DNA of 64,000 bases from a virus (lineage: Duplodnaviria; Heunggongvirae; Uroviricota; Caudoviricetes): positions 12,305 to 76,304 of the IMG/VR virus record IMGVR_UViG_3300032315_001309; one strand, written 5' to 3'. The first letter of the stretch is position 1. Each line of letters begins with the position of its first letter. Positions 25,239 through 60,649 of this stretch are shown in pieces. Position numbers and translations under genes: made by a program. Under the pieces are notes generated by a model. The model was not told where the DNA came from. It did no database searches and saw only the letters and a list, made by a program, of their open reading frames with translations.

Positions 25239-27940
25239 TGAACGCTTCCGCTTTTTTAGGTAGACAATCAACAGTAAGAAATCCTTCAACTCCATATAAA
25301 AGTGCTAGGATGGTAGATTCTTCTGCTAACTATTCTAATCGTATTGAAAGAAAAGTACAAAGAACTCCCACAACAAAATCTTTACTTACAATCAGACGAA
25401 AGGTATTTGATGTAGAAAATACTTTAAAGTCTTTGTTTAATTTGAATGTGAAATCTTCAACTATGAAGAAAAGAATCAAATTAATTCAAGGACAAGAAGA
25501 TAGAGACGGTAAAAAAAATACAAAAACAACTTCGAATTTGGGTGGAATCACACAAAAAACTCAAGTGGGGTCAATGGGCTTTATTTCAAATTTCTTAACT
25601 TTTACTTTTCTTGGGTGGTTGTTTAGTGTTTTTCAGCCTCTGATCGGAAAATTGGAAGGAATGGTACCTCTTTTAACTGGGACATTTGGCTTCTTTGGCG
25701 GGGTCCTTACTTCTTTGCTTGATGGGTTTGCTTCCTTTGTTAAATTTGGGAACGATACTCAGGATAAAATTAAAGGTGCGGAAAATCAAATAAAGAATCA
25801 AGCATCAAATATAAAGAAAACTTTTGATGATGCCACAAGCGCATTGGTGGGTTTACTTAATAGTACCACTCAAGTAGCAACTTCATTTTTGGATATATTT
25901 AATGAAACTTATGATAAACAATCTCTATCTTCAAGCAATACCACTCAAGAAAATGTTGTAAGCTTTTCTAGTCTTGCTAGCTCGGCAACTCCTCGCGTAA
26001 GAACATATGCTGAAGGTGGTCACGTAGATAATGGAAGAATTGATCCCCGGACTCCAATTAAAAGAGGTGGTAAAGAAAGAAGAACGCCGACACAAAAACA
26101 AAAGCCTATTATTCAACAACTAGTCACACAACCAGGAAAAGATGTTGGTGGTATTGATAAAATACAAGAATTATATGATCAAAGATCTAGTGATTCGGGT
26201 TTCAATATTTTTTCTACTTTTGATAGAACACATAAAAGTGGTTATGTTGCTCTTACCAAAACATCAGAAGAATTTAAAAGAGTCCATTCCAGTGATTTTC
26301 TCGGTATTGGTAATTTAATGAGCATCTCAGTCGATGCTTCTTTAGGACAAAAACCAGAAAAGAGATCATATACTCAATTTGCCGAAGGTATTAGTTATTT
26401 GGTTAATTTTGGATTGACGCAATCCGAAGAGTTTAAGAAACTCAATATAGAAAAAATGATAGAGAATATTGTTCAATCGAAAGTAGATTCTGCCATTAAT
26501 AAGGTAAGAGAAGAAATAAACAAAAGGAGTAAAGTAGAAGAAGGTGGTCCAGGTGGGGGTGCTGGTGAAATCGCTGGGGGTGAATATGGTGCATATGCCC
26601 CATCTGGAATAGAAAAACAAATTTATGATTATTTGATTAATGAGAAAAAAATGAATGATTTTCAGGCTTTGGGTTTGATGGCTAATATCCATCGGGAAAG
26701 TAGCTTTATTCCAAATAATAGAGAACCTAATGGAACTGGTGTTGGTTTATTTCAATGGTCACATGGTAGAGTAGCGCCGTTTATGCGAGCAGTTCCTAAT
26801 TGGGAAACTGATTGGAAAGGTCAGATTGATTATGCTTTATCTGAGCCGGAAAATTTATCTTTAGTTAAACCTGGGGCTTATCAATCGCAACAGTTTAAAT
26901 CTGCACAACAAGCGGCTGATTGGTGGATGAAAGAATGGGAAAGACCCAGAGATACTTTTACGGGTAGTAAAAAACATACAGAGTATTTAAATTCGGTTCC
27001 AAAAGGTCCAAGTGGATCTGCAAAATTTAGAGAAGGTTCCTCACTTGAAAATCTATCAGTCGAAGGTGGAATATTACCTAGTACTAGATTCATTTCTAGT
27101 TATAGGGGATGGAGATGGGGACAAATGCACAGAGGTGTGGATTATGCTGGGGCCGGTGTTGATGATAAACCCATATCAATAATAAAAGCAGGTAAGGTGG
27201 TGACAGCAGGTTACGATCCCGGCGGTGGTGGTTATATTGTAGTAATACAGCACAATGATGGAACCCTGTCCAAATATTTTCACCTAAAAGAAGGATCTAT
27301 AAAAGTTAAAGCTGGCCAAGCTGTATCACCCGGAAGAGTAATAGGTATTGTTGGAAATACGGGAAGAAGTACTGGTACACATTTACATTTTGAGGTGTGG
27401 AAAGGAAACAAAGATTTAGATAATCCCCATTTGTTGGCAAATAATTATTTTAGATTTGGTGGGAATGTTAAACCAACTCAAGTTAAGCCAGTTAAAACAA
27501 AACCTACACCTGGCCAATCTCCAATACCGGAGAATCAAGCACCAAAAGGCGAGGCATTCATGATTAACGGAAAAATGTATTATGTTGACCCCAAAGGCCA
27601 GGGAAAAGTTACCACTGAAAGTGGCGCAGAGATTGATTTCTCTGGTGGCAAAAATATTTCTCTATTGAAAGAAATATCAAAACTCAGAGAAATGAGAAAT
27701 ATTAAAGGTGCGCCAAAGAAAAAATATGGCGGATTGGTTTATTCAAGAGGTTCCAACCCATTACTGCCTCCAGATAAGTACGCATCATATAACGACCCAT
27801 CAATGACTTCGACTATTTTAATTCAACCTATAATTAAATCTAAGATAGTTCCAATCGACTCTGAAACAAATGGTACAATTATGTTCGCTGCTCCTAATGT
27901 AAATAGTTCATCAAGTAGTTTTGAATTAATGAGAAGTTAA
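25238..27940 (+). CDS. tail/baseplate protein with SLT-type lytic transglycosylase and M23 peptidase domains
   Basis: 900 aa. ANIHRESSFIPNN...GTGVGLFQWS matches the SLT E-S...GxGLMQ pattern. MHRGVDYAG...GNTGRSTGTHLHFEV matches M23/LytM (HxxxD...HxH). Hydrophobic N-terminal region. KKKYGGLV motif near the C-terminus. Confidence 0.6.
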   Translation: MNASAFLGRQSTVRNPSTPYKSARMVDSSANYSNRIERKVQRTPTTKSLLTIRRKVFDVENTLKSLFNLNVKSSTMKKRIKLIQGQEDRDGKKNTKTTSNLGGITQKTQVGSMGFISNFLTFTFLGWLFSVFQPLIGKLEGMVPLLTGTFGFFGGVLTSLLDGFASFVKFGNDTQDKIKGAENQIKNQASNIKKTFDDATSALVGLLNSTTQVATSFLDIFNETYDKQSLSSSNTTQENVVSFSSLASSATPRVRTYAEGGHVDNGRIDPRTPIKRGGKERRTPTQKQKPIIQQLVTQPGKDVGGIDKIQELYDQRSSDSGFNIFSTFDRTHKSGYVALTKTSEEFKRVHSSDFLGIGNLMSISVDASLGQKPEKRSYTQFAEGISYLVNFGLTQSEEFKKLNIEKMIENIVQSKVDSAINKVREEINKRSKVEEGGPGGGAGEIAGGEYGAYAPSGIEKQIYDYLINEKKMNDFQALGLMANIHRESSFIPNNREPNGTGVGLFQWSHGRVAPFMRAVPNWETDWKGQIDYALSEPENLSLVKPGAYQSQQFKSAQQAADWWMKEWERPRDTFTGSKKHTEYLNSVPKGPSGSAKFREGSSLENLSVEGGILPSTRFISSYRGWRWGQMHRGVDYAGAGVDDKPISIIKAGKVVTAGYDPGGGGYIVVIQHNDGTLSKYFHLKEGSIKVKAGQAVSPGRVIGIVGNTGRSTGTHLHFEVWKGNKDLDNPHLLANNYFRFGGNVKPTQVKPVKTKPTPGQSPIPENQAPKGEAFMINGKMYYVDPKGQGKVTTESGAEIDFSGGKNISLLKEISKLREMRNIKGAPKKKYGGLVYSRGSNPLLPPDKYASYNDPSMTSTILIQPIIKSKIVPIDSETNGTIMFAAPNVNSSSSSFELMRS

Positions 27941-29269
27941 ATGTCGAATTTTTCCGCTGCCCCAGGTGAAGGCCAAATACAAGAACTAACAATATTTTCG
28001 AATTACTTTAAGGACTTGAATCTGGCTGGTAATTCATTTATTGAATTAATTTTATATGAAAGTATTCTCGATTACTCTGTGAGAGCTTCTTTTTCGTTTG
28101 TGGATACAGGTTATAGGAGTTCAGGTAATTCAGTGGCGATAACCGAGGCCGATGGTATAAATTTAGTTTCTGGTGAAAAGGTATTTTTGAAAGTAACTGA
28201 TGGGTATGGTCAAGTTATATCATGTAAAAATGATTATCAATTAAGAGTAAATTCTCTGAAGAGTGCTGACGAAACAGTGAACAAAACTATAATATCTTTA
28301 GATTTTTATTCTAAGGAGTGTATTGACAATGAATTGGTGGAAAATCGAGTAACCAAAAGATACGAAGGAAAAATTTCAGATTCAGTTGAATCTATATTAA
28401 AAAATGTTCTGAAGACACCCAAAAACTTAGATATTGATCCTGGGTTAAATGATTTTAACTTTTTGGGTCATGTGGAAAAACCTTTTTATAAGATCGCATG
28501 GTTAGCAAAAAGAACAGTACCTGACATGCCAGATTCAAAGGGTAAGTTGGCTGGGTATTTTTTCTTTGAAACTTTAGATGATGGTGTTGGATCTGGGGGT
28601 TACAAATTCAAATCAATTGATATGATGTGGTCACAAACACCAAAAAGAAAATTAATTTATAATGATCTAGTTGCAACTCCACCTGGATACAATGCCAAAA
28701 TTCTTTCGTATTCTTTTAACAACTCAACAAGTATTGATAAATTATTAAAATCGGGTGCTTTTTCTTCACCTACGCTTAAGAGATTTGACCCATACACTAA
28801 CGAGTATGTTGAAAATCAATTTTCTGATACTGGGAGACTAAAGCCAAAAAATATGGGTGGATTAGAGCCGCCCAAGATAGCTAGTGATCTTGATTTATGG
28901 AATAAGTCTAGTAGAATTAGTTACCGATTTGATGACAAGGGCGTACTTCCAACCGGCACAACACTGAAAAATCAGTTGGAGTTTTCAAAGGATATTAACT
29001 TCAGTACCGAAGAGATTATTCGACAATCTTACACTAGATATAATAATCTCTTTACTATTAAACTGTCTGTCACAATCGTTGGGGATTTTGGAATACATGC
29101 AGGTGATTTGATTAGGTGTGATTTTCCTGAAATAAGTGGAAAAGAAAATACCATAGTCAGTAGTAAAAAAAGTGGACTATATATTGTGGTGGATGTTGCA
29201 CATCGAATACACCAAACAGGATATTATACGACACTGCACTTAGCCAGAGAGAGTATCTATAAAAAATAA
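27941..29269 (+). CDS. baseplate hub protein, gp27-like (by position upstream of gp5)
   Basis: 442 aa, immediately upstream of the gp5-like spike. No motif confirmation. Confidence 0.3.
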   Translation: MSNFSAAPGEGQIQELTIFSNYFKDLNLAGNSFIELILYESILDYSVRASFSFVDTGYRSSGNSVAITEADGINLVSGEKVFLKVTDGYGQVISCKNDYQLRVNSLKSADETVNKTIISLDFYSKECIDNELVENRVTKRYEGKISDSVESILKNVLKTPKNLDIDPGLNDFNFLGHVEKPFYKIAWLAKRTVPDMPDSKGKLAGYFFFETLDDGVGSGGYKFKSIDMMWSQTPKRKLIYNDLVATPPGYNAKILSYSFNNSTSIDKLLKSGAFSSPTLKRFDPYTNEYVENQFSDTGRLKPKNMGGLEPPKIASDLDLWNKSSRISYRFDDKGVLPTGTTLKNQLEFSKDINFSTEEIIRQSYTRYNNLFTIKLSVTIVGDFGIHAGDLIRCDFPEISGKENTIVSSKKSGLYIVVDVAHRIHQTGYYTTLHLARESIYKK

Positions 29270-34607: not shown

Positions 34608-37600
34608 ATGGCGTTAAACCGTTTAGAGAATTTTCTGAAGTCTTCTAGAGGAAAAGTTCTTCATGTAAATCCAGAAAATCTGGATTCAACTGATGCAATT
34701 TCAAATGATGGTTCCTCACCATTTACTCCGTTTAAGACCATCAACAGAGCCCTCATGGAGGCTTCAAGATATTCTTATCAAATTGGTTTGGGTAATGATA
34801 GATTCAATTTCTGCACCATTCTATTATACTCAGGTGAACATCTTGTAGATAATAGACCAGGTGCAGTAATAAGTGATGATGGAATAGTAAGAGTAAGAAG
34901 CGGTTCTACTACAACAATCAACCAGTTTGATATAAACACTATTCTTGATATCACAAATTCCAATAATAAATTATACCTCTTAAACTCTGTTCATGGTGGA
35001 GTGATAGTTCCAAGAGGAACATCTATTATTGCACAAGATTTAAGGAAAACAGTAGTTAGACCATTATATGTTCCAGATCCTATAAGTAGCGATACTATCG
35101 ATGAAAACATAGAAAGATCCGCCATTTTTAGAATTACTGGGGCTTCTTTTTTCTTTGGTTTTAGTATTTTAGATGCAAGTCCAAATGGATTCTGTTATAA
35201 AAATTATAATACTTCTAAATTTACTCCAAATTATTCACACCACAAATTAACCGCATTTGAATATGCTGATGGGGTGAATCCAGTAAAAATAAGAGATGCT
35301 TTTATTAATCTAGATACTACTAGAACTGACCTAGATCAATATTACGAAAAGATTTCTCTGGTTTATGGTGTTAGTTCCGGTAGAACTATAACTGATGTAA
35401 ATTATGTTGGTGGAGTATCCGTTGATATTCAACCAATTATTGATGAATATCGAATTGTTGGACCTAGAGGAGAAGTTGTAGGTATTTCAAGTATTATTTC
35501 GGGTGATGGTGTAACGCCATCAAAAGTAATCACCGTAACTCTAGATGGACCAGCAACTGGTATTTCAGTAGACACTTCTATTCAAGTTTCTGACGTTAAT
35601 GAAATAGGATATGATGGACAATATGTTGTTGCCTCTATTCCAACAACTAATCAGGTTCAGTACATAACACCGAATATTCCAACTGATCCAAATCCACCAT
35701 TATTTGGTGCTACGTTAAACATCATATCTGATACTATATCATCAGCGTCACCATATGTTTTTAACGTATCATTAAGATCCGTTTATGGCATGTGTGGCCT
35801 ACATGCAGACGGTAGTAAAGTTACTGGATTTAAGAGTGTAGTTGTTGCACAATTTACTGCTGTTTGTTTACAGAAAGACGATAATGCATTTGTAATTTAT
35901 GATGAAGATAGCGGTAATTATGTTGATTCATCAGTAATACCAGATCTCTATAAAAATACCAGATCAAGATATAAGCCAGAGTTCGAAAACTACCACATTA
36001 AGGTATCTAATGACTCTTTTGCACAGCTAGTTTCTGTTTTCTCTATTGGATATGCTACTCAAATTGTTGCGGAAAGCGGTGGTGATTATTCAATCACTAA
36101 CTCAAACTCCAACTTTGGTGCAAAGACCTTCATTTCTTCTGGTTATAAAAAGGACTCATTTGATCAAGATGATCACGGATACATTATAGGTGTAATTCCA
36201 CCCGAAGAAGTAAATGTAGATCCAGTTACAGTTGAATTCGCTCAGATTGATATTGGTCTGACTAAATCTGTTTCTGCGGGAATCGGCACCACAAATAGAT
36301 TGTATTTGTATAATAAAACTGATATAAATTCTCCACCTAATGTAATTATGGATGGATTTACTGTTGGTGCTAAAATAAATGATACGATAAACATTGAACT
36401 ACCAACAAGAGCATCATCTAAAATTGTTATACCGAATACTGAAAGTTCATATGCAAAATCTTTTAATGTTCAAAGACAAAATAATGATTTTGAAAATGCC
36501 ATTACCGGTGGAGTTTTAACTCTAACACAATCACACACATTTGAGTCTGGTGAAAAAGTAAGGGTATTGTCTGAAAATGGACATCTACCAGACGGTCTTG
36601 ATGATAGAGTTTATTATATTATAGAATCGAGTATCGATAATACTCTTTTAAATACTCAAGTAAAACTAGCCACCACATTTAATAACTCTATCAACAATAT
36701 ATCCATACTACCAAATAGGAAGGGTGGAGTTCTTTCAATTGTAAGTAGAGTACACGACAAGATAGCGAATGATCCAGGACACCCTATTCAGTGGGATTCG
36801 GTTAATAATAATTGGTATATTACTGTAAGTGAAACAGACAATGGAATATATTCTGTTATTAGTCCTCTTAGTATTGATAGCACTGGAAGAACTTTCGTCA
36901 TCAGGACCCCCGATAGAAGAACAGAGCAGAATAAATTATATAAATTAATTTATAGTATTCCAAAGAATACAGCAACCGCTGCAAGGCCGCCAATTAACGG
37001 ATATATCATACAGGAAAGTAATAATAGTTCTCTTACTAATGAAGAACTTTCAAGATATTTTGGAAGCAGTAGCTTAACTGTAGACAATGAAATTAGAAAT
37101 CCTAGATTTATTTCTGATATACGGTGGGTCAGTGGTGAGATTATAGTAACTACAGAATTGCCCCATAAGTTAAACGTAGGGGACTTTACTGAAATTGTAA
37201 ATGTTCTCCCTGTTGGATATAATGGAACATATCAAGTATTAAGAACACCTAGTTCTAGAAGTTTCGTTTATACTTCAACAAATAATCCTGGTATCTTCTC
37301 AAACGATACCAGAAATAGAAATATTGATCTCCCATATATTAAAAGAAAAGAAATCCGGGATGTTTTTCAAATCTATAAATCTGAAGAAGTTCAGAAATTT
37401 ATTAGAGATAAACAAGATGGTATATATGAATTAACAGTTATTCATAATTCTGTAGCGCCAACAGTAGCGCCGTTTACTGAATTTAAGTTTTCCCAACCAT
37501 TAACAAATCTCTATCCAAGATTGGATAGAGATAATTTGAATATAGATCCAAATCCAACAGTTTGTTTTGCTCATTCTAATCTAATTGGTAGTGTATTAGT

Positions 37601-40600
37601 TAATAATCCAGAAAACTCAGTCACGAAAGAATCTTTTAACAAATTTAATTCTGATTTAGTAGTCGGTTTTGGTGTCACTGGTATAGTATCCAACCAAACT
37701 GGTACTTCACATACGATTTATACTAGTGTTGATCATGGATTGGCTGGTATTACTAGTGTTTCTATCGTTAGTACTGGAGCATCTTATATAAGTGGAACTT
37801 ACTATGGTGTGGGTGTAGGTACTACTTCTGGTGGGGCATCAGCGTCCTTTAAAGTTGTTGTTGACGGCACCCAAAGAGTTTCATCTGTCAGCCTCATGAA
37901 TGGAGGTAGCAATTATTCAGTCGGAAACCGAATTTCTATTATATCAGGAATCGGAACTACTACTGGATTTATTCCTGCTGTTTTAAATGTAACTTCAATT
38001 GCTGATAGTATTGATAACTCAGTTTCCGTTTCTGGTTTCGGTGAGAAATATTTAAATTATAATGACGCATATAGAATAACCGAGATTAAAAATTCAAATC
38101 AAGTAATAGTTTCTTCAGCATCTACAATAATTGGCTTTTCGACTTCAATAGTTCCTATTATCGGTGCAGGTATAATTAATGGTAAAATTATACCAATATT
38201 ATCGTTAACATATAATAATATCACGGGTATTTCAACTGTTACTTTAGGTCGATCATCTGGTATAAAATTAAATTCTAAAATTAGAATTACTGGATTTAAT
38301 TCTAACTTATATAATCAAGACGTTGTAGTAACTAAAGTAAACTCTCTGACACAAGTTGAAGTCAAAACTGGTATTTCTACTACAACACCACCAACTAGTG
38401 GTTCTGGTATTGTAATTCCATTGGGTATTTCGCCTATTGTTGGAAAAAATAGAAATAGTTATTACTACTCTGGAATTTCAACAACCACTGGAGCCGCACT
38501 TAACTCTAATGCTTCTGATAGCACACCACTTAACATAAGAAATGCCACTGTAACTGGGTTAAAGCAGGGTGATTTTATTGAAGTGAATAGTGAAATCATG
38601 AGAATTAAATCACCTATAACTTCAAATTTAGTTCCGGTTTATCGTGGAGTTTTTGGTACTGAAAGAACGACACACCCAATCAATTCTTTAGTTAAAAAAG
38701 TACAGATCATTCCAGTTGAATTAAGAAGAAATTCCATCATTAGAGCGTCTGGTCATACATTTGAATACGTTGGTTATGGTCCAGGTAATTATTCAACTGC
38801 GTTACCTGAAAATCAAGACCGAGAGATTTCAACCAAGGAAAGATTACTATCGCAGGCTACTAAAATAGGTGGTGGAACAATCTATTATAGTGGAATGGAT
38901 GAAAATGGTGACTTCTATTCTGGAAATAGGAAGTTGTCATCTTCCACTGGACAAGAGGAAGTTTATGATCTTCCAATCCCAACAGTTGTAGGCGAATATT
39001 CTACCCCGAATATTGCGGAATCTGATAAATTAATTGTTTCGAGTTCCATTACGGTTAATGGTGGTGAGAATAATAATGCGGTATCTGAATTCAATGGACC
39101 CATTATTTTAAATAAAAAATTAACATCATATTCACCTGACGGAATAGAAACCACCTCGTTATTTTTACAAGGTGATCAAGAAATTTCAAGAAGACATTCT
39201 ATTTCTGAAGATACTCCAATTATTGTAGGTAATTATGGTGATATTCTTTACCGTGCTACTCCAAATGAGGGTGAAAATATTGGATGGGTTTATACCACAA
39301 ACGATAGATGGAAAACCTGGGGATACGTTGGCGATCTAGGAACATTAGTTTACTTATATTCTGGAACAGAATCGACATCCACTTTAGAAGGTATCGTTGA
39401 TTCACTTAAAATTGTTGGTGATCCTAATGGATTTGGTATAGATGTTGATATACAAATAGATCCAGTGGTTGGATTTGGTACAATTGTATTACGAAATCCA
39501 ATTAGTATTATAAATTTTGGAACAGAGTTAAGTAGAAATAATCCGACTTTTACAAATAGAAGTGGCGGATCTCGATTAGTTTATTATAATAATTTAAATA
39601 CAACTAATGTAGATTATGCAACTGGTGTAAGCGCCAACTCTCTATGGAATTCAATTCCAATTAATGATCCCTCAGTTAACTTTAAGTGGTTTGCTGGTGA
39701 AACTGAAATTGCATCTTTAAATGGTGTTGGTAATCTTACCATAGCTGGAACACTTAACGTAAGTGGTGGAATTACTGGTACCATAACCGGTAATGTGACT
39801 GGTAATTTGACTGGCACTGCGACAAGTTCAATAACATCTGCAAACTTAACTCGATCAGTCGTTGCTGGTGATGGATTAGCTGGTGGCGGATCTTTAAATG
39901 GCCAGAATGTAACTTTAAATATAGGTACTGTGGTAAATGGTGGTATTCAAGTTGATGGCGATAGCATTCAAGTCGATTCCACTGTAGTAAGAACTTCTGG
40001 AACTCAGAGTATTTCTGGTGCCAAGACTTTTAATGATGGTGTTTCTGTTACCGGAAATACTAGTTCAACTACATTTACTGGTAATGGTATTACCCCAATT
40101 GGTGGTATTATTATGTGGAATGGTACTTTTGCTGAAGCTGCCACATTACAGCCAGGTTGGGCAATATGTGATGGTAGGACAGTAAATGGGAGAACTACTC
40201 CAGACTTAAGAAATAGATTCATTGTTGGATCTGCCGGTGATTCCGGTGGAATATCTGTTGCCACAATAACCGGTGGAGTCACTAAAACTGGTGGTAATAA
40301 AGACTCAATTGTTGTTTCACACTCACATACAGGGTCTACTACTGGTGCTGGTGGTCACGGTCACAGTGTTTCAGATCCTGGCCACTCTCATGATGTGACT
40401 GCCGCAGTAACTGGTGTTGCGTTCCCATCACTTACTTCTACTGGTGGTTTTGGTCTTGTCGTGACCAATACAACAATTGGTACCACTGGTTCTGGAACTG
40501 GAATTAGTATCTCTGCTGTTGGTGATCACGCTCATGGATTATCGATTGATGCTACGGGCGGTTCAGGAACAGATGCTAATCTCCCACCATATTATGCACT

Positions 40601-40625
40601 TGCATTCATTATGAGAACTGCTTGA
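34608..40625 (+). CDS. giant tail-fibre/structural protein (2005 aa) with C-terminal phage tail-collar domain and His-rich terminus
   Basis: The C-terminal IMWNGTFAEAATLQPGWAICDGRTVNGRTTPDLRNRFIVGSAG matches the tail-collar pattern. The His/Gly tail is SHSHTGSTTGAGGHGHSVSDPGHSHD...GDHAHG. Long S/T/G/N-rich repetitive body. CTAAATAAACA upstream is late-promoter-like. Confidence 0.7.
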   Translation: MALNRLENFLKSSRGKVLHVNPENLDSTDAISNDGSSPFTPFKTINRALMEASRYSYQIGLGNDRFNFCTILLYSGEHLVDNRPGAVISDDGIVRVRSGSTTTINQFDINTILDITNSNNKLYLLNSVHGGVIVPRGTSIIAQDLRKTVVRPLYVPDPISSDTIDENIERSAIFRITGASFFFGFSILDASPNGFCYKNYNTSKFTPNYSHHKLTAFEYADGVNPVKIRDAFINLDTTRTDLDQYYEKISLVYGVSSGRTITDVNYVGGVSVDIQPIIDEYRIVGPRGEVVGISSIISGDGVTPSKVITVTLDGPATGISVDTSIQVSDVNEIGYDGQYVVASIPTTNQVQYITPNIPTDPNPPLFGATLNIISDTISSASPYVFNVSLRSVYGMCGLHADGSKVTGFKSVVVAQFTAVCLQKDDNAFVIYDEDSGNYVDSSVIPDLYKNTRSRYKPEFENYHIKVSNDSFAQLVSVFSIGYATQIVAESGGDYSITNSNSNFGAKTFISSGYKKDSFDQDDHGYIIGVIPPEEVNVDPVTVEFAQIDIGLTKSVSAGIGTTNRLYLYNKTDINSPPNVIMDGFTVGAKINDTINIELPTRASSKIVIPNTESSYAKSFNVQRQNNDFENAITGGVLTLTQSHTFESGEKVRVLSENGHLPDGLDDRVYYIIESSIDNTLLNTQVKLATTFNNSINNISILPNRKGGVLSIVSRVHDKIANDPGHPIQWDSVNNNWYITVSETDNGIYSVISPLSIDSTGRTFVIRTPDRRTEQNKLYKLIYSIPKNTATAARPPINGYIIQESNNSSLTNEELSRYFGSSSLTVDNEIRNPRFISDIRWVSGEIIVTTELPHKLNVGDFTEIVNVLPVGYNGTYQVLRTPSSRSFVYTSTNNPGIFSNDTRNRNIDLPYIKRKEIRDVFQIYKSEEVQKFIRDKQDGIYELTVIHNSVAPTVAPFTEFKFSQPLTNLYPRLDRDNLNIDPNPTVCFAHSNLIGSVLVNNPENSVTKESFNKFNSDLVVGFGVTGIVSNQTGTSHTIYTSVDHGLAGITSVSIVSTGASYISGTYYGVGVGTTSGGASASFKVVVDGTQRVSSVSLMNGGSNYSVGNRISIISGIGTTTGFIPAVLNVTSIADSIDNSVSVSGFGEKYLNYNDAYRITEIKNSNQVIVSSASTIIGFSTSIVPIIGAGIINGKIIPILSLTYNNITGISTVTLGRSSGIKLNSKIRITGFNSNLYNQDVVVTKVNSLTQVEVKTGISTTTPPTSGSGIVIPLGISPIVGKNRNSYYYSGISTTTGAALNSNASDSTPLNIRNATVTGLKQGDFIEVNSEIMRIKSPITSNLVPVYRGVFGTERTTHPINSLVKKVQIIPVELRRNSIIRASGHTFEYVGYGPGNYSTALPENQDREISTKERLLSQATKIGGGTIYYSGMDENGDFYSGNRKLSSSTGQEEVYDLPIPTVVGEYSTPNIAESDKLIVSSSITVNGGENNNAVSEFNGPIILNKKLTSYSPDGIETTSLFLQGDQEISRRHSISEDTPIIVGNYGDILYRATPNEGENIGWVYTTNDRWKTWGYVGDLGTLVYLYSGTESTSTLEGIVDSLKIVGDPNGFGIDVDIQIDPVVGFGTIVLRNPISIINFGTELSRNNPTFTNRSGGSRLVYYNNLNTTNVDYATGVSANSLWNSIPINDPSVNFKWFAGETEIASLNGVGNLTIAGTLNVSGGITGTITGNVTGNLTGTATSSITSANLTRSVVAGDGLAGGGSLNGQNVTLNIGTVVNGGIQVDGDSIQVDSTVVRTSGTQSISGAKTFNDGVSVTGNTSSTTFTGNGITPIGGIIMWNGTFAEAATLQPGWAICDGRTVNGRTTPDLRNRFIVGSAGDSGGISVATITGGVTKTGGNKDSIVVSHSHTGSTTGAGGHGHSVSDPGHSHDVTAAVTGVAFPSLTSTGGFGLVVTNTTIGTTGSGTGISISAVGDHAHGLSIDATGGSGTDANLPPYYALAFIMRTA

Positions 40626-40698: not shown

Positions 40699-42189
40699 AT
40701 GGCAATAGAAAGAAATTTTATAATAAAAAATGGACTTGAGGTTGCAGATAATTTATTAGTCACAAATAATGATAAGATTGGTATTGGTACAACTCAACCA
40801 AATTACGTTTTAGATATAGTTGGTGATGTTGCTTCATCGGGAAAATTATTATTTCCACCCGAAAATCAACCAAATTCAACAACTGGAACATTTAGTTCCC
40901 CGACTCCTTTTTTAGTTACAGGAATTAATACTTCCCTTTTCCGTGTATATGATTCATTAGATGACACTGGGAGTATATTAACTCCTGGTACTAAAGTTGT
41001 AAATATTGGAATATCTAGTATTAGTATTTTTCCTGGACATAATTTAGCTGTAGGTTCGGCCCAAACTACTATTTCTATCATTAGAAATGTAACTGCGGGG
41101 GAAGCAGAACAATTTTTAGTATCTAGGGGTCCAAGTCTACCTCCCGTTTGGAAAACAATTAGTGGCTTTGGTACCGTTAGTCCTGCCGGTATAGGTTCAA
41201 CTGGTCCTGCTGGTCCTGCTGGTCCTGCCGGTATAGGTTCAACTGGTCCTGCTGGTCCTGCCGGTATAGGTTCAACTGGTCCTGCTGGTCCTGCTGGTCC
41301 TGCCGGTATAGGTTCAACTGGTCCTGCTGGTCCTGCCGAATTCAGAAATGTTCTAATCAATGGAGATTTTCAGGTCAAGCAACAATACGGGACGACGGTA
41401 ACGCCTGGATTCACCACAAGTCTGTATGTAACCGATAGATGGGCAGCACAAGCTTTCGGTTCTGGACTAACCGCACAAACTGTTGTCACTGACCAGAGGG
41501 CCAGGCTGCAAATCAATGGTGCCGCAGGCAACTTTGGTTGCAACGTACTGCAGCGCATTGAGTCGGTCAATGTACTACACATGCGCAACAGTAGCGTTAC
41601 TCTTTCTGTCGATCTTGCAAATACGCTGTTAACGTCAGTCACCTGGGCTGCATATTATCCCAACACAATCGATACTTTTACGTCACTCACCCTGATTGCG
41701 TCAGGTACGTTTAACGTAACATCAACACTAGGGCGTTATAGTGCTACATTCAACATAGGCGACTTCGCTTGGAGAGGTGTCGAAATCCGCTTTTCTGTCG
41801 GCGCTCAGAGTTCAGGTACTTTTACCTTGCGTGACGCTATGTTAGAGCTAGGCACTGCGGCAACTCCCATGGAAAGAAGATCCTATGGCGCAGAGCTACA
41901 GCTTTGCCAACGCTATTTCCGCTGGGTTTCGTGTAACTCTACTCTCCGTGCTGTCATCAGTACCCAAACCCAAGAGACAGGAATAAACTGGCCCGAGATG
42001 AGGGTAACTCCAACAGCGGGAACTCCGGCCCCAGATCCAAACACACCTGGATTCTCTGAAACCACTAACGTCGCTTTCTTCTTTCTTGGGCGTATGACAC
42101 CATATGGCGGCTCTCTTATACTGACTAGCAATACCTCTGGTGTCTCATATACTCTCGGTTACCGAGCCTCTCTCTCTGCTGAACTATGA
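40699..42189 (+). CDS. collagen-repeat tail-fibre protein with GC-rich C-terminal domain
   Basis: GPAGIGSTGPAGPAGPAG... Gly-X-Y repeats lie in the middle. The N-terminus resembles phage fibre starts. The C-terminal 280 aa are encoded by about 50% GC DNA, against about 35% elsewhere. Confidence 0.65.
   Translation: MAIERNFIIKNGLEVADNLLVTNNDKIGIGTTQPNYVLDIVGDVASSGKLLFPPENQPNSTTGTFSSPTPFLVTGINTSLFRVYDSLDDTGSILTPGTKVVNIGISSISIFPGHNLAVGSAQTTISIIRNVTAGEAEQFLVSRGPSLPPVWKTISGFGTVSPAGIGSTGPAGPAGPAGIGSTGPAGPAGIGSTGPAGPAGPAGIGSTGPAGPAEFRNVLINGDFQVKQQYGTTVTPGFTTSLYVTDRWAAQAFGSGLTAQTVVTDQRARLQINGAAGNFGCNVLQRIESVNVLHMRNSSVTLSVDLANTLLTSVTWAAYYPNTIDTFTSLTLIASGTFNVTSTLGRYSATFNIGDFAWRGVEIRFSVGAQSSGTFTLRDAMLELGTAATPMERRSYGAELQLCQRYFRWVSCNSTLRAVISTQTQETGINWPEMRVTPTAGTPAPDPNTPGFSETTNVAFFFLGRMTPYGGSLILTSNTSGVSYTLGYRASLSAEL
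41178..41336 (+). repeat. tandem DNA repeat (33-nt unit ggtataggttcaactggtcctgctggtcctgcc plus 9-nt ggtcctgct sub-repeats) encoding collagen-like GPA triplets
   Basis: About four near-perfect copies read directly. The minus-strand ORF 40866-41360 mirrors them and is an artefact. Confidence 0.7.
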
Positions 42190-42623
42190 CCTACCAACTT
42201 ACTCGTTTTGGCACCATTATCCGCCTTTCTGATGGATTCACTATTCCCTTTGATTTGCGCAACATTGATTACCAAGAATATCTGAAATGGGTGGCGGAAG
42301 GCAATACCCCATTACCTGCACCTGAAGACATTCCCACCCCCAACTTCCGGGGATTTCTAGATGCCGTAATTGCCAGCCCCCTTTATCAGAAGGTAGGTGA
42401 ACAGTCCGTAACCACTCCAGCGGTCAACGTGGCATTTACCACCACGATGGGTGCCCTGATACTGGCCTCAACGGGCCAACCCAACCTGACAGCATTGCAA
42501 TCTGGGTTCAGTAATTTACTGGCGGCGATGACGGTCGATCAGAATGATCTGGACTCACTGCAAGCTTTACTTGTGGGTACCGGCCTGGATACCTTGATAA
42601 CCATAAGTGTTACCCCTAGTTAA
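42186..42623 (+). CDS. hypothetical protein (fibre-associated, within GC-rich module; possible tail-fibre chaperone)
   Basis: 145 aa, overlapping start (ATGA). Its composition is GC-rich and Ala/Thr/Leu-rich, unlike the rest of the proteome. Confidence 0.35.
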   Translation: MTYQLTRFGTIIRLSDGFTIPFDLRNIDYQEYLKWVAEGNTPLPAPEDIPTPNFRGFLDAVIASPLYQKVGEQSVTTPAVNVAFTTTMGALILASTGQPNLTALQSGFSNLLAAMTVDQNDLDSLQALLVGTGLDTLITISVTPS

Positions 42624-42763
42624 GTTTAAAAACACTAACACACACAACAGAATGTGTCAAGTGCATTGTGACAGTTATTGAATCGTCACATTTAGAATTG
42701 ACATTTTGATATATTGTGTCTAGAGTGTGTTTGTCGCTTTTGAAGTGTTTCTGTATATATTAT

Positions 42764-42799
42764 TAATTAGTGGACGGTTCGATAGCTGTCCACTAATTA
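42764..42799. promoter_or_regulatory. perfect 12-bp inverted repeat TAATTAGTGGAC-N12-GTCCACTAATTA
   Basis: Read directly. Lies in the 228-bp non-coding gap upstream of the helicase gene. A TTGACA-N17-TAGAGT promoter-like element sits around 42690-42720. Confidence 0.4.
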
Positions 42800-42851
42800 G
42801 CTGGTTCTAAAATAAATCGGTTATTATTATTTCATACTGATTCAATAATCA

Positions 42852-44084
42852 ATGACTTCTATCCTTCTTCGCCCACACCAAGGATCCGCTCTGGATTTGA
42901 TGGATATGTACGAAACTGGAAAGATTATTCTCCCAACCGGTTCCGGTAAGAGTATCGTTTTTATTCAGAATACTATTAATCAATTTGAACAGGAAACACC
43001 ACAGATTGTTTGTGTTGTTGCTCCTAGGTTGCTTCTTGCGTGTCAATTGTCTGCTGATTATGAACAGTATATCACTAACGCCAAATATCTACACGTTCAT
43101 TCTGGAAGTAAGCTAAAGCATTATCGCACCACCAATACTGCAGATATCGAAGAATGGTGTCGAATTCATAAAGATGAACATAGGCTAATTTTTACATCTT
43201 ATAATTCTCTACATAAGATTACTAATTCTTCTATCGACGTGAATACTTATCACTTTGATGAATGTCATAATTCTGTGAAGAAAAATTTCTTTCCACATAT
43301 TGAAACCGCAACAAAAAAGGCGAATAAAAAATATTTCTTCACTGCGACACCTAAAAACTCTAAAATTCCTACCAAAAAGCCTGGTATGAATATTCAAGAG
43401 GTTTATGGTCACACTATTTGTGATATTCCGATGACACAAATGGTCAAGAGTGGATATGTTCTACCTCCACTTGTGATTAAAAAGAAAGTCCATAATCTGA
43501 TGAATGACGATGAGCGCAATTGTGATCTGATTATCACAACTCTCGATGAACAAGCCCCATCTAAGGTTCTCATTGCAGCAAAATCCACTAAATCCATTAT
43601 CTCTTTGATTTCGGACACTGATTTTGTTACGCAACTACGTGATCGAGATTATCATATTTTACATATCACGGCTGCTCATGGTGCTTATATTGACGGTAAG
43701 CAAGTCAAGCGGGATGCATTCTTCCGTATATTGAATGAGTGGGGTCTAGATGATTCTAAAAAGTTTGTTCTTTTAAATTACTCGATTCTCTCTGAGGGTA
43801 TCAATTGCACTGGACTTGATTCTGTGATCTTTCTTCGCAATATGAATGTTATCGCTATGTGCCAAACTATTGGTCGCATCATTCGTCTACACAAGAAAGA
43901 TTCCGATAAGCTTGCTACTAATCAACTCGAAGTGGGTGATTATGACAACTACAAAAAGCCTTATGGTGTAGTTGTTCTTCCTGTTTATGATACTTACTCT
44001 GAGTCTATTGCTGATGCTGTAGAATCAGTGATTCATAAGTCGTTTGTTATGGGACAGACGGTCTCAGATGAAATCGAGAAGTGA
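42852..44084 (+). CDS. uvsW: UvsW-like DNA helicase (SF2)
   Basis: LRPHQ...ILPTGSGKS (motif I), FDECHN (DECH box) and TIGRIIRL (motif VI) parallel T4 UvsW (LNLPTSAGKS, DECH, TIGRVLR). 410 aa. Confidence 0.6.
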   Translation: MTSILLRPHQGSALDLMDMYETGKIILPTGSGKSIVFIQNTINQFEQETPQIVCVVAPRLLLACQLSADYEQYITNAKYLHVHSGSKLKHYRTTNTADIEEWCRIHKDEHRLIFTSYNSLHKITNSSIDVNTYHFDECHNSVKKNFFPHIETATKKANKKYFFTATPKNSKIPTKKPGMNIQEVYGHTICDIPMTQMVKSGYVLPPLVIKKKVHNLMNDDERNCDLIITTLDEQAPSKVLIAAKSTKSIISLISDTDFVTQLRDRDYHILHITAAHGAYIDGKQVKRDAFFRILNEWGLDDSKKFVLLNYSILSEGINCTGLDSVIFLRNMNVIAMCQTIGRIIRLHKKDSDKLATNQLEVGDYDNYKKPYGVVVLPVYDTYSESIADAVESVIHKSFVMGQTVSDEIEK

Positions 44085-51355: not shown

Positions 51356-51961
51356 ATGAGAGACCAAAATTATCTAGCACTAGATCTTGAAATCAATACT
51401 GATGGTAATGGCTGGGTCGGTGACATTATTCAGGTTGGAATTTCTGTTGGCAATCCCACAGTCGGAATTTATTTCGATGAAGATTTTCTGATCAAACCAT
51501 ATGAAAAAACCAATGGTGGACTGTTGACTCCATTTATCACACAATTAACCGGAATCACACAAGAAGAATTTGATCTGGACGGGGTCACACTTGCAGACTG
51601 TGCAGATAGACTAAAGCAAGTAATTAAGGAATATAACACCTTTGTGAATCCAGTACAATGGGGACTTGGTGATGCCGATGAACTGATGGATGCATTTAAA
51701 TATAAAACAATTGATTTTCCTAATTTTGGGCGGCGAGTAATTGATGTAAAACACCTTTTCTTGTACCTGGAGGCAGCCAACGGCAGAGCCCTCTCAGGCG
51801 GCCTAAGGAGCGCCATGGGCAAGTACAAGCTCCCTTTTGAGGGGAAGCCACACGATGCGGCCAGGGATGCCTACAACACGCTCAGATTCTTTTTTCACCT
51901 ACTGGAGCGTCAGAAGAAATTAGAAGACTGTGCTAGGTTGATGAAAACTATTGCGTATTGA
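51356..51961 (+). CDS. DEDD-family 3'-5' exonuclease (DnaQ/oligoribonuclease-like)
   Basis: LALDLE (Exo I D-x-E) and HDAARDAYNT (Exo III H-x4-D) are in the correct order. 201 aa. Confidence 0.55.
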   Translation: MRDQNYLALDLEINTDGNGWVGDIIQVGISVGNPTVGIYFDEDFLIKPYEKTNGGLLTPFITQLTGITQEEFDLDGVTLADCADRLKQVIKEYNTFVNPVQWGLGDADELMDAFKYKTIDFPNFGRRVIDVKHLFLYLEAANGRALSGGLRSAMGKYKLPFEGKPHDAARDAYNTLRFFFHLLERQKKLEDCARLMKTIAY

Positions 51962-52233: not shown

Positions 52234-52291
52234 AAAACTGGCACACAAATTCTAAAACACCCTCCATATACCCTATACTACTTTTGTACAA

Positions 52292-52474
52292 TTGAAAGCC
52301 TACATGAAATTAACAACCAAAAAAGAGTTTAATTTATCCCTATCTGAATATGAAGCTACACAATTAAGAAACTTTATACGTGATTGTAAAGTTTGGGATA
52401 ATACTGAAATGAAAGGAAAAGAGTATTACATCACGGTTATTGAATTGTGGAATTCTTTAAAGGCTGAAGAGTAA
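52292..52474 (+). CDS. hypothetical protein
   Basis: 60-aa ORF. Confidence 0.3.
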   Translation: MKAYMKLTTKKEFNLSLSEYEATQLRNFIRDCKVWDNTEMKGKEYYITVIELWNSLKAEE

Positions 52475-53144: not shown

Positions 53145-53966
53145 ATGAGCACTACTGGTAAACTAATTCTCGGCGGCGTTGGCGTATTTCTTGCCGTCAC
53201 TCTTGTTGGCGGCAACTTCACCACGATTCAAACTGGTGAAAATGGACTCTATAAGAGTTTCGATGGTAAGATCTCTGAGCAGGTTCTACAGCCTGGTATC
53301 AACTGGGATGGTCTTGGTTCTATTCAGACTTTCAACACCCGTAAGATCACTGTTAATGCAAATGATCTGAAGCCTAAGACAAAAGATAACACCATTATGA
53401 AAGAAATGGATGTTACTGTCACCTACTCTATCTCTCCCACATCCCTGTTCGGTTTCTATACCGGATATGATATCTCTAATCATGGAGTTACTCAAAATGG
53501 GCAGATTCAGTTGATGGCCGCATACATTCAACGTCTAATCACATCTTCCGTTAACCAATCCGTTGATGAATTCCCTGCTCTGGAAGTCAACTCCAAGCTG
53601 GAAAACATTCAGGATGCTATCAAGGCCAACCTGACGGCTGCTCTTGAGAAGAATGGTCTGGCTGGTAAAATCACCATTGATTCTGTAATCGTTGGTAAAG
53701 CCGATCTTCCTGATTCTCTGGTTGCTTCTGTTAACCGAGTTGTTGTTGCTCAGTCTGCATTCAAGGAACAGGAACAACGTACCCTTACTGCTGAAAGTAA
53801 GGCTAAGGAAAATGCGGCTCTTGCTGCTACTGTTACTGAAAAATCTATTGAGTACAAGCGACTTGAAATCATGGAGAAATTTGTTGATAATCCCAACATC
53901 AAGTGGGGTATCATCAATGGCGCCAAGATGGACTTCATGCCTGGTGGTATGGTAGGCGATAAGTGA
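53145..53966 (+). CDS. SPFH/band-7 (stomatin/prohibitin/HflKC-like) domain membrane protein
   Basis: An N-terminal TM helix is followed by IQTGENGLYKSFDGKISEQVLQPGINW, which is typical of the SPFH domain start, then a coiled-coil-like Ala-rich C-terminus. Confidence 0.5.
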   Translation: MSTTGKLILGGVGVFLAVTLVGGNFTTIQTGENGLYKSFDGKISEQVLQPGINWDGLGSIQTFNTRKITVNANDLKPKTKDNTIMKEMDVTVTYSISPTSLFGFYTGYDISNHGVTQNGQIQLMAAYIQRLITSSVNQSVDEFPALEVNSKLENIQDAIKANLTAALEKNGLAGKITIDSVIVGKADLPDSLVASVNRVVVAQSAFKEQEQRTLTAESKAKENAALAATVTEKSIEYKRLEIMEKFVDNPNIKWGIINGAKMDFMPGGMVGDK

Positions 53967-53972
53967 TAATGC

Positions 53973-54016
53973 ACCAGGTGGCAGGCTAAAACTGCCACCT
54001 GGTCTTAATAATTTAT
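53973..54016 (+). terminator. stem-loop terminator candidate (12-bp GC-rich stem ACCAGGTGGCAG/CTGCCACCTGGT)
   Basis: Perfect inverted repeat with a 7-nt loop, directly after the SPFH gene, followed by an A/T-rich stretch. The loop-stem junction carries the AAAACTGCCAC motif. Confidence 0.4.
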
Positions 54017-54020
54017 TACT

Positions 54021-54230
54021 ATGACACCCGAAAGATACCAAGAAATCCAAACATTCCTCAATTATATTCGTTCAAATCCGTTTGGAATTCGTCTAGACCG
54101 ACAGTATAATTATGAATTTAAAAGAGAAAAGCCAACCTGGTCAACTAATGTAGTGTACCGTATGATGACACAACCAGGCCGATATGATTCTGATGTTTTG
54201 AATTACTTACGTGGAGCATTTATAAAATGA
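54021..54230 (+). CDS. hypothetical protein
   Basis: 69-aa ORF. Confidence 0.3.
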   Translation: MTPERYQEIQTFLNYIRSNPFGIRLDRQYNYEFKREKPTWSTNVVYRMMTQPGRYDSDVLNYLRGAFIK

Positions 54231-54384
54231 TTAAAATCTTTGAAAAGAGCTATGACGGAGAATCACTCTACGATCTCCAAAGGGATGCGGGAGAGGCAGT
54301 GAGTGAAGAATATAATGACAAAATGCAACAACTTCCAGTAGATCAGTATGGATTTACTGCTGGTATGTTCAAAGTAACTATCGA

Positions 54385-54837
54385 GTGGACACTATGAAAC
54401 AACTAGTAACTTATGCATCGCATGTAGAAGATCCCACTGCATATGCATTCATGGTCTTTGATTCTATCGAAGACACTGAGAAGTTCTTCCGAACCGCACA
54501 GATCTATTTTGAAATGTATCCTGGTGATACTCTCCAAACTATCTACCTAACTAGTGATAAGTTTGTAGAATATACCAACTACATGAAATTCAGGAATGAT
54601 TTTGAAGTAAAGAATATTTCCAATGAACAGTATCAAACATTGAAGGCTGTATTCACTGGCGAATGTAGCAATCATGGAGCATGTGGAGAATTTGGACATA
54701 CTCAGGTCTTTGATATTATCGAATGTTTCGGTAATCTTCCATACGAAGAGAAACCAGAACTGGTTAAAGAGTTGACTGACTTATATCCCGAATGTGATCT
54801 TGCACTTTCTGGTGAAGATGGCGTCTACATCACATAA
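54385..54837 (+). CDS. hypothetical Cys/His-containing protein
   Basis: 150 aa. Contains GECSNHGACGEFGH, a possible metal site. Confidence 0.35.
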   Translation: MDTMKQLVTYASHVEDPTAYAFMVFDSIEDTEKFFRTAQIYFEMYPGDTLQTIYLTSDKFVEYTNYMKFRNDFEVKNISNEQYQTLKAVFTGECSNHGACGEFGHTQVFDIIECFGNLPYEEKPELVKELTDLYPECDLALSGEDGVYIT

Positions 54838-58336: not shown

Positions 58337-58451
58337 ATGATTAGCTTATGACACTATCTCAACTGTCCATTACTACAACATCCTCTTCAAAAATCGGGTA
58401 TTGTATAGAAGTGATTGAGAAATCAACAGAACCTTGACAATTTAAACTTTT

Positions 58452-58524
58452 GGGTTAGTAGCATAGTGGCTAATGCACCTGGCTTTTAACCAGTATATCG
58501 TGAGTTCGAGTCTCACCTAACCCA
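58452..58524 (+). tRNA. tRNA-Lys (anticodon TTT)
   Basis: Manual fold: 7-bp acceptor GGGTTAG/CTAACCC, D-arm GCAT/ATGC, anticodon loop CTTTTAA, T-arm GTGAG-TTCGAGT-CTCAC. Confidence 0.65.
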
Positions 58525-58555
58525 TTAGGACACTATTATCTAAAATGTCCTATTT

Positions 58556-58626
58556 GTCTGGTTCGTCTAATGGTAAGACTGGAGCTTCCAAACCTTTTGA
58601 CGTGGGTTCGATTCCTACACCAGGCG
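58556..58626 (+). tRNA. tRNA, anticodon unresolved (possibly CCA, Trp)
   Basis: Acceptor GTCTGGT/ACCAGGC, D-arm GTCT/AGAC, T-arm GTGGG-TTCGATT-CCTAC. The anticodon stem could not be folded cleanly by hand. Confidence 0.4.
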
Positions 58627-58653
58627 TTAGGTTAAATATACCTAGATTTATTT

Positions 58654-58740
58654 GGGGAAATGGCAACTATCGGCAAGTGTTGCGGCGCTCTGTAAAAGCG
58701 TTACTTTGAACCGTTGGGGGTTCGACTCCCTCTTTCCTCA
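58654..58740 (+). tRNA. tRNA-Tyr (GTA), type II with long variable arm
   Basis: Acceptor GGGGAAA/TTTCCTC, anticodon arm GCGCT-CTGTAAA-AGCGT, T-arm GGGGG-TTCGACT-CCCTC. 87 nt. Confidence 0.5.
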
Positions 58741-58769
58741 TTAGTCATAAATATGACTAGTATATAATT

Positions 58770-58843
58770 GGTCCTGTAGCATAGTGGCCTAATGCACTAC
58801 CCTGTCACGGTAGATTACGGCGGTTCAAATCCGCTCAGGATCG
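58770..58843 (+). tRNA. tRNA-Asp (GTC)
   Basis: Acceptor GGTCCTG/CAGGATC, perfect anticodon stem CTACC/GGTAG with loop CTGTCAC, T-arm GGCGG-TTCAAAT-CCGCT. Confidence 0.7.
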
Positions 58844-58844
58844 T

Positions 58845-58870
58845 ATCTTGCTTCAATAGCAAGATTTTTA
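58845..58870 (+). terminator. hairpin terminator ATCTTGC-TTCAATA-GCAAGAT + TTTT
   Basis: Perfect 7-bp inverted repeat and a T run, directly after tRNA-Asp. Confidence 0.5.
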
Positions 58871-58897
58871 ACTTTATTATCTGAACACTGGAGAATC

Positions 58898-59155
58898 ATG
58901 GGAACAAATTCTAATTGTTGCTGCTATGAAGGAAAAGCTAATCACCCAGATGATGAAGCAGTAGATCGTTTTGCTACTGCTATGAAAGAAAAACTCGCCA
59001 AGAAACGGGAGCAAGGGTGTAGCGGGTGGCAAACTGCTTCGGCTGATTTGCTAAATCAGTTGCTCCAAGAACACCTAAGCAAAGGTGATCCTGTCGATAT
59101 TGCAAATTTTGCCATGATGCTGCATCAGAATGGCCAATCAATCGTAATAAAATGA
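58898..59155 (+). CDS. hypothetical protein
   Basis: 85-aa ORF with a GGAG ribosome-binding site, between tRNA clusters. GC content is higher than the average. Confidence 0.4.
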   Translation: MGTNSNCCCYEGKANHPDDEAVDRFATAMKEKLAKKREQGCSGWQTASADLLNQLLQEHLSKGDPVDIANFAMMLHQNGQSIVIK

Positions 59156-59355: not shown

Positions 59356-59362
59356 AACACAA

Positions 59363-59487: not shown

Positions 59488-59515
59488 TTGTCTGAATAGA
59501 CATTAAACTATTTGA

Positions 59516-59588: not shown

Positions 59589-59610
59589 TTCCGCTGAATA
59601 AGTGGTGTAT

Positions 59611-60641: not shown

Positions 60642-60649
60642 TTTCTCAT

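Follow-up and report, generated by a model that had tools for sequence, protein, structure and literature searches.

A GC-rich fibre tip and its adjoining small gene as a probable imported host-recognition module in a B3-type freshwater jumbo cyanomyovirus

Tail-fibre host-range cassettes are known from T4 (gp37/gp38), lambda (Stf/Tfa), and Mu and P2 (fibre plus Tfa). In these cassettes, a mosaic fibre with an exchangeable C-terminal receptor-binding part is followed by a small assembly gene, and swaps occur between unrelated phages at conserved junctions. Here, we describe a locus with a comparable layout in a 64,000-nucleotide (nt) stretch of viral DNA, the window, which covers positions 12,305 to 76,304 of the IMG/VR virus record IMGVR_UViG_3300032315_001309 (Caudoviricetes). 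The locus lies on the plus strand and comprises a fibre open reading frame (ORF) of 496 amino acids (40699-42189) and a second ORF of 145 amino acids, ORF145 (42186-42623), the fibre stop and the ORF145 start overlapping by ATGA. The GC-rich block at 41338-42623, which holds the fibre tip (domain A and subdomain B) and ORF145, is probably a foreign two-gene host-recognition module in a freshwater jumbo cyanomyovirus of the B3 type. Unlike the layout, no relation to the classical cassettes was detected in the sequences, and no Caudo_TAP or gp38-type family was found in the Pfam scan. The folds also differ, the tip being a beta-sandwich of the carbohydrate-binding module (CBM) type, whereas ORF145 combines a small beta motif with a helical bundle.

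Over its 64 kb, the window runs collinear with the Synechococcus phages B3 and B23 (MN695334, MN695335) at 96-98% identity, with position 1 of B3 corresponding to window position 16603. Both are 244-kb Kyanoviridae myoviruses with 34.8% GC from a freshwater subarctic lake, their isolation hosts belong to the Synechococcus-Cyanobium complex, and their genomes come from cultured isolates and were closed by PCR (PMC7171214). The counterparts of the two ORFs, gp21 and gp22, are not discussed in the genome announcement (PMC7171214) and are annotated as hypothetical proteins in the MN695334 and MN695335 records. Window and isolates share the position of the locus between a 2005-amino-acid fibre gene and a helicase gene, the ATGA overlap, and an anomaly in the GC content at third codon positions (GC3). 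The N-terminal anchor of the fibre is 93% identical at the DNA level, the GC-rich C-terminal domain 86-97%, and gp22 is 97.9% identical to ORF145 at the protein level. B3 gp21 differs in having a shaft of ~1,450 amino acids and a diverged allele of domain A (synonymous divergence, dS, 0.47).

Two other described phages carry the pair or parts of it. In the siphovirus S-2L, S2L_50 (tail fiber protein) contains the full tip, with domains A and B ending in AEL, at 40% identity, and S2L_51 (tail fiber assembly-like protein) is 43% identical to ORF145 over 92% of the length, with the same gene order and a 4-nt overlap. However, S-2L is GC-rich (GC3 ~0.92), its fibre has another N-terminal part and no collagen-like linker, and its tip is slightly GC3-poorer (0.83) than the surroundings. 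In S-CRM01, domain A of gp18 (tail fiber) is 66% identical, the homology ending at the boundary equivalent to the LCQRYF motif of the window fibre, and the C-terminal domain of gp17 (tail fiber assembly-like) is 44-47% identical to ORF145. In contrast to the window, gp18 has another subdomain B and a native codon composition (GC3 0.245), and gp17 is located upstream of gp18, after another fibre, and is without the N-terminal motif of ORF145. The original prediction, made from the DNA letters of the window, had proposed a horizontally exchanged host-range cassette, and the presence of the pair or its parts in unrelated sipho-, podo-, and myoviruses supports this proposal. A literature search for cyanophage fibre exchange returned nothing specific.

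The block (1286 nt) has a GC content of 0.491, compared with a mean of 0.354 (standard deviation 0.025, maximum 0.437) in the remaining window stretches of this length (z = 5.4). No other 1286-nt stretch is as GC-rich, so that the composition is not uniform and the predicted switch to about 50% GC between ~41.35 and 42.62 kb was confirmed. The GC3 was 0.448 in domain A (amino acids 214-407, 41338..41919), 0.427 in subdomain B (amino acids 408-496 with the C-terminal AEL, plus the stop codon, 41920..42189), and 0.503 in ORF145. The 40 window ORFs of at least 150 amino acids had values of 0.19-0.42, mostly 0.19-0.33, with structural genes at 0.19-0.28. Pooling the 428 codons of the block gave a GC3 of ~0.46 versus a background of 0.26, a difference of more than 9 standard errors by binomial arithmetic. 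The block is thus compositionally foreign at synonymous sites. The raw GC content climbs from ~41.18 kb, within the collagen-like repeat at 41179-41337 (GC 0.59), but the GC3 of the repeat is only 0.09, with GGT, CCT, and GCT codons. The GC of the repeat therefore comes from its Gly, Pro, and Ala codons alone. Since the repeat is native in codon style, the true codon-style switch is at ~41338, inside the fibre gene just past the collagen repeats, where it had been expected. The GC-rich codon style extends to the stop codon of ORF145 (42623), beyond which the intergenic gap is back at a GC content of 0.35. The anticipated shift in amino acid usage was also found, the cassette differing from eight long ORFs in Thr (13.3 vs. 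7.0%), Ala (8.4 vs. 4.6%), Leu (10.3 vs. 7.1%), and Arg (5.1 vs. 4.0%), while Lys (0.7 vs. 6.7%) and Ile (4.4 vs. 8.1%) fell.

The tip family had 113 members in the fetched loci, of which 71 were on AT-rich contigs. The mean GC3 excess over the background among these 71 was 0.001, and the excess of the window and B3/B23 (+0.18 to +0.20) was the highest of all 113, the next being +0.096. On GC-rich contigs, the tip was GC3-poorer than its surroundings, by up to 0.24, and the deviation of the tip was correlated with the background GC3 at -0.60. Judged by these values, the base composition of the tip family appears generally mismatched to that of the carrier genomes, and the deviations fit a module moving between genomes of differing composition. 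A tip GC3 of 0.18-0.24 below the background was observed at the loci L005 (4375-5997), L049, L033, L092, and L021, which are on IMG/VR and ENA contigs.

If the block had instead evolved in place without any import, its GC content would reflect amino acid needs or codon-usage selection. The somewhat raised GC at the first and second codon positions (0.49-0.60) would agree with this, as would the homologous stretch in S-CRM01, which is mildly GC-richer than its surroundings (0.42-0.44 vs. ~0.38). However, the excess is greatest at synonymous third positions, and the 66%-identical domain A homologue of S-CRM01 has a native GC3, which means that high GC is not required by the protein. In addition, the family members on AT-rich contigs average no excess, and the other structural genes of the window stay at a GC3 of 0.19-0.28. 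Evolution in place, which we consider very unlikely, appears largely refuted by these GC3 comparisons.

The GC-rich block is present at identical junctions in B3 and B23, where it comprises the C-terminus of gp21 plus gp22. These parts have a GC3 of 0.44-0.48 in B3, compared with 0.255 in the shaft just upstream, and both the codon where the rise begins and the stop codon where it ends are those of the window. Consequently, the import took place before the window phage and B3 diverged and is not recent, and the presence of the block in the closed genomes of two isolates excludes misassembly. The original prediction had named a junction conserved in all relatives as an argument against recent exchange. 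B3 and B23 do share both junctions, so that the foreign block stands and its recent import does not. A recent gain specific to the window phage would suit the strong, unameliorated GC3 contrast expected of a young insert, but B3 and B23 share the block, its 5' and 3' junctions, and its GC3, and subdomain B and ORF145 are no more diverged from B3 than the flanks (dS 0.06). Such a phage-specific acquisition, which we rate as exceedingly unlikely, was refuted by the B3/B23 comparison.

A younger exchange lies across this older block. While B3 gp21 has 1909 amino acids including the ~1,450-amino-acid shaft, the window fibre has a collagen-like repeat of 53 amino acids (159 nt) instead, and 4,373 nt of B3 (24571-28943) have no window counterpart. 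The domains in the B3 shaft are He_PIG Ig-like repeats, a beta-helix, and Laminin_G_3. The DNA identity to B3 is 97-99% in the flanks, 92-95% at 40.3-41.18 kb, and 82-87% at 41313-41950, and it returns to 97-99% from 41950 on, including all of ORF145. The dS values agree with this profile, at 0.04-0.07 in the 2005-amino-acid fibre, subdomain B, ORF145, and the helicase, 0.19 in the fibre N-terminus (92.9% DNA identity to the gp21 N-terminus), and 0.47-0.49 in domain A (0.47 for the first 200 amino acids of the tip). Subdomain B at 41950-42186 has 97% DNA identity and a dS of 0.067. The ratio of nonsynonymous to synonymous divergence (omega) in domain A is 0.14, which indicates purifying selection on another allele rather than rapid adaptive evolution.

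The maximum chi-square method places a breakpoint at 41914 (chi2 98.7). Upstream of this position, 89 of 619 nt are mismatched to B3, compared with 22 of 1068 nt downstream (Fisher p = 3.5e-22). The breakpoint lies within the codons for LCQRYF (amino acids 402-407, 41902..41919), the motif at the boundary of domain A and subdomain B that marks the 3' breakpoint of the recent allele replacement. The homology to S-CRM01 gp18 stops at LCQRYF as well, and C199, R201, and Y202 in the numbering of the family alignment are nearly invariant. There is thus a recent recombinant tract at ~40.36-41.91 kb that ends within the GC block. Comparison of the locus among relatives, as proposed earlier, did reveal exchange, but the borders of the exchanged tract differ from those of the GC block. 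Since both alleles of domain A are GC3-rich (0.448 in the window, 0.436 in B3), they belong to one module lineage. By this comparison, only domain A (41338-41914) and the shaft would be recent replacements, and subdomain B would have been inherited together with ORF145 in this lineage. Its composition and its sharing among unrelated phages place the locus in the class of exchanged cassettes, with a GC3 excess of +0.18, occurrence in three morphotypes, and a tract of ninefold higher dS.

A frequently recombining locus could also gain GC by biased gene conversion at a recombination hot spot, in which case the composition of the donor would be irrelevant. The opposite deviation of the tip in GC-rich phages (the correlation of -0.60) agrees with a composition that is generally out of step. 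Yet biased conversion predicts an excess everywhere, and the GC-rich phages show a GC deficit. Furthermore, the fibre N-terminus is recombinant (dS 0.19) but has a GC3 of only 0.14, and subdomain B and ORF145 are GC3-high (0.427 and 0.503) without recent recombination. We therefore regard GC-biased conversion as quite improbable.

Three parts can be distinguished in the fibre, all on the plus strand. The N-terminal anchor, presumed to attach the fibre to the virion, comprises 160 amino acids (40699..41178) and has a native composition (GC3 0.14). No relatives of amino acids 1-160 outside B3/B23 were found in IMG/VR, a set of 5.8 billion proteins, or JGI metagenome contigs, and the shaft swap can therefore not be polarised. 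The collagen-like linker (53 amino acids, 41179..41337) has the pattern (GST/GPA)n with G-I interruptions and is built of runs of three or four GXY triplets each (GST, then two or three GPA) split by G-I. Its coding sequence is a perfect tandem repeat whose 75-nt unit is present in 2.1 copies (Tandem Repeats Finder, period 75, 100% match), and this unit was not found elsewhere in the window. A fibre variant of 471 amino acids in another metagenome is exactly 25 amino acids, or one repeat unit, shorter, and a second metagenomic variant of 496 amino acids differs by one residue. These variants indicate that the short fibre is a genuine type whose repeat number varies. We also considered a diversity-generating retroelement for the locus and rejected it, there being no repeat copy of the cassette within the window.

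The tip (residues 214-496) matches positions 790-1096 of the 1096-position profile phrog_4492, the C-terminus of a tail fibre protein, with an E-value of 4.6e-47, and B3 gp21 also matches this profile (E 1e-40). The nearly invariant motifs of the tip family are FRNxLINGDF, DRW, QRIE, LExG, CxRY, MR..P, and the terminal AEL. The window tip has every nearly invariant column of the family alignment A1 (N13, I16, N17, G18, D42, W44, Q81, I83, E84, L178, E179, G181, C199, R201, Y202, R231, P234, E291, and L292) and matches the family hidden Markov model with an E-value of 2.2e-101. In subdomain B, the protein identity is 67% to the tip at the metagenomic locus L011 and 39% to S-2L.

The model of domain A has a beta-sandwich jelly-roll fold, as in carbohydrate-binding modules of the CBM4_9/CenC type. 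At E <= 0.1, the Pfam scan gave no match for the fibre or ORF145, and thus no CBM family for the tip, and the profile matches in the PDB were marginal (E 0.017-0.026). Therefore, domain A is described as CBM-like and not classed as a member of a CBM family. Its identity to CBM4/CBM22 (CenC-type) modules and to the CBMs of phage fibres (Kp7 gp52, CBA120 TSP4, phi812 baseplate) is only 11-18%. Based on the modelled fold, domain A is a probable glycan-binding receptor domain. A PDB sequence search with the tip returned just a weak match of its N-terminal motif to 9t9r. Chain H of this entry, "Spike (GP13)", is the sole solved structure that the tip family matches at the level of sequence (E 1.2e-5). 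The match spans the NxLIN...DxW start and, weakly, the CxRF region, and the entry is a candidate reference for the mounting of the domain.

ORF145 consists of a beta-hairpin/helix motif (amino acids 1-48, nt 42186-42329), a Pro-rich linker, and a helical bundle (amino acids 53-145), with a predicted local distance difference test (pLDDT) score of 92 for the AlphaFold2 model. A PDB sequence search with ORF145 returned nothing. PF16778 (Phage_tail_APC) was found in four of the 41 aligned ORF145 homologues, which share only the N-terminal motif of 45 amino acids (best E 8e-18). Since only distant homologues match, the relation between ORF145 and PF16778 is indirect, and a literature search on PF16778 returned nothing. 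No similarity of ORF145 to characterised assembly proteins of the Tfa/Caudo_TAP or T4 gp38 type was detected.

The gene context is more informative. The 45-amino-acid motif matched 364 stretches in IMG/VR, and among the loci fetched via this motif a tip-family fibre lies immediately upstream of 30 of the 38 ORF145-family ORFs. Thus, the original assignment of the small gene to the position of a fibre chaperone holds for its relatives as well. A full-length ORF145 homologue (57-61% identical) follows a same-family fibre at L005, on a 40-kb T7-like podovirus contig of ~69% GC, and a homologue at L012 (60% identical) lies between two same-family fibres. At L012, the full-length homologue and both flanking family fibres occupy 1023-3593 of a contig with 42% GC. 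Tip-family fibres also occur in tandem, three or four in a row, at several IMG/VR loci.

Known fibre assembly genes are small and have the same position as ORF145, and GenBank labels the homologues of S-2L and S-CRM01 as "tail fiber assembly-like". A functional link between the fibre and the small protein is well supported by this conserved neighbourhood, and ORF145 probably acts in fibre assembly or as a partner of the tip. A chaperone role would be suggested by its size, position, translational coupling, and the depositors' annotations. Alternatively, ORF145 might be no chaperone but a structural tip or adhesin subunit that remains on the fibre, or might be functionally unconnected to the fibre. 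This agrees with the lack of any match to known fibre chaperone families (Caudo_TAP) or of a direct match to PF16778, and with a fold that matches only generic helical bundles. Moreover, the C-terminal domain recombines separately from the N-terminal motif and the fibre, and the S-CRM01 homologue gp17 is located upstream of gp18. However, the repeated tight adjacency to family fibres, with 4-nt overlaps and in three morphotypes, implies some functional link. We consider a non-chaperone role possible but doubtful.

As the favoured explanation, we propose that the ancestor of the window phage and B3/B23 gained the tip and ORF145 by recombination from a GC-richer phage pool, and that the codon style of the block would not yet have adjusted to the genomic GC content of 35%. 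The fibre would be attached to the virion via its lineage-specific N-terminus, followed by a short collagen-like spacer that presumably forms trimers. The CBM4/22-like domain A would most likely bind a surface glycan (polysaccharide) of Synechococcus/Cyanobium, and ORF145, translationally coupled to the fibre, would most likely aid folding or trimerisation of the tip or stay bound to it. Conserved sequence at the domain boundaries may afterwards have let the sub-modules swap by homologous exchange. The closest tip outside the B3 group, at L011, has 73.6% DNA identity (window 41318-42191) and 75% protein identity. It lies on a contig of 58% GC, directly after a long uninterrupted GXY stalk, and has a domain GC3 of 0.55. 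The nearest non-B3 relatives are thus carried on DNA of 58% (L011) to ~69% GC (S-2L and L005), which supports the GC-richer donor suggested at the outset.

Several observations weigh against this explanation. No donor was found, and the best non-B3 match has only the 75% protein identity of L011. A scan of 185,579 bacterial and archaeal species (one genome each, alignment A3) contained no cyanobacterial copy and nothing above 46% identity, yielding only prophage-type relatives at or below this value, and a metagenome scan with the tip gave no match. Besides being short and interrupted, the collagen-like stretch did not match the Pfam Collagen family (PF01391), so that "collagen-like" is descriptive only. 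The fold search with the ORF145 model returned generic helical bundles and uncharacterised phage proteins but no characterised structure, and ORF145 itself had no Pfam match at E <= 0.1, PF16778 included. The tip and ORF145 are also not always co-inherited, as the L011 tip precedes an unrelated gene and the L005 fibre is only 24% identical despite its close ORF145 homologue. Strict co-inheritance is rejected by these two cases, and "cassette" therefore describes this lineage and no indivisible unit. Finally, only three relatives are known (B3, B23, and near-identical metagenomic contigs), too few to root either the direction of the shaft swap or the age of the import.

The same data bear on the notion that the block arose as a chimera in metagenome assembly or by gene capture from the host. 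The window does stem from a metagenome scaffold, being derived from or nearly identical to an ENA scaffold of 204,864 bp, and hosts of the Synechococcus-Cyanobium complex are GC-rich. However, the same arrangement is present in two closed isolates and at least three independent contigs, and the genome scan argues against host capture. The probability of either origin is practically negligible, and we retain import from a GC-richer phage pool as the probable history of the block.

The surroundings of the locus show further differences from B3. The upstream neighbour is the 2005-amino-acid tail fibre gene (34608-40625), the equivalent of B3 gp20, and the downstream neighbour is the helicase gene (42852-44084). 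In the C-terminal tip of the 2005-amino-acid fibre, 58 codons at 40359-40530 encode a Gly-rich segment with HxH motifs that has 13 replacements and one synonymous change relative to B3. The omega of this fibre is ~5.7 in the last 110 codons and 0.19 over the whole gene, and its tip looks, from these substitutions, to be under diversifying selection. The gap between ORF145 and the helicase gene (42624-42851) contains a perfect 12-bp inverted repeat, TAATTAGTGGAC/GTCCACTAATTA, at 42764-42799, as well as a promoter-like TTGACA-17-TAGAGT at 42698-42726, and no intrinsic terminator was detected 3' of ORF145. This gap may be the border between the structural and replication transcription units.

More breaks in collinearity with B3 were found at 52290-52473, 53936-54826, 59820-60885, 61160-62544, and 62545-63180. 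They are segments without a match in B3, plus one that is only 85% identical, and mark other mosaic spots. The tRNA cluster at 58451-63990 contains genes for Lys, Trp, Tyr, Asp, Ile, Phe, Glu, and Met. Since tRNA-Tyr and tRNA-Phe are missing from the annotated tRNA list of the matching B3 stretch, the tRNA content differs between near-identical phages. The ORFs at 51356-51958 and 53145-53963 have a raised GC3 (0.40 and 0.42), second only to the cassette, and may be further acquired genes.

In kind, the locus is familiar tail-fibre mosaicism, and its value is that of a clear, well-delimited example and not of a new principle. It stands out by its history in two layers, by the drastic exchange of shafts between phages of 98% identity, and by a module that is shared across morphotypes. 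It is also possible, though we hold this only tentatively, that the CBM-like tip ending in AEL and the protein with the 45-amino-acid motif form a very widespread uncharacterised receptor-binding class, unrelated to Tfa, gp38, and gp57A, with FRNxLINGDF and LCQRYF serving as recombination linkers. If so, phages of any morphotype or composition would swap domain A, subdomain B, and the N- and C-terminal parts of the small ORF independently, and the B3 lineage, with its exchange of both the shaft and domain A between phages of 98% identity, would be a natural experiment.

To our knowledge, phages of freshwater picocyanobacteria are still without a characterised receptor-binding protein. The host range of cyanophages is poorly understood, and the locus provides a concrete candidate, with a predicted glycan-binding tip and a partner gene. 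B3 and the window phage form a near-identical pair that differs mainly in shaft length and tip allele. The occurrence of the module across 35-69% GC and all three tail types suggests that it may belong to a common receptor-recognition tool-kit of the phages of Synechococcus and Cyanobium.

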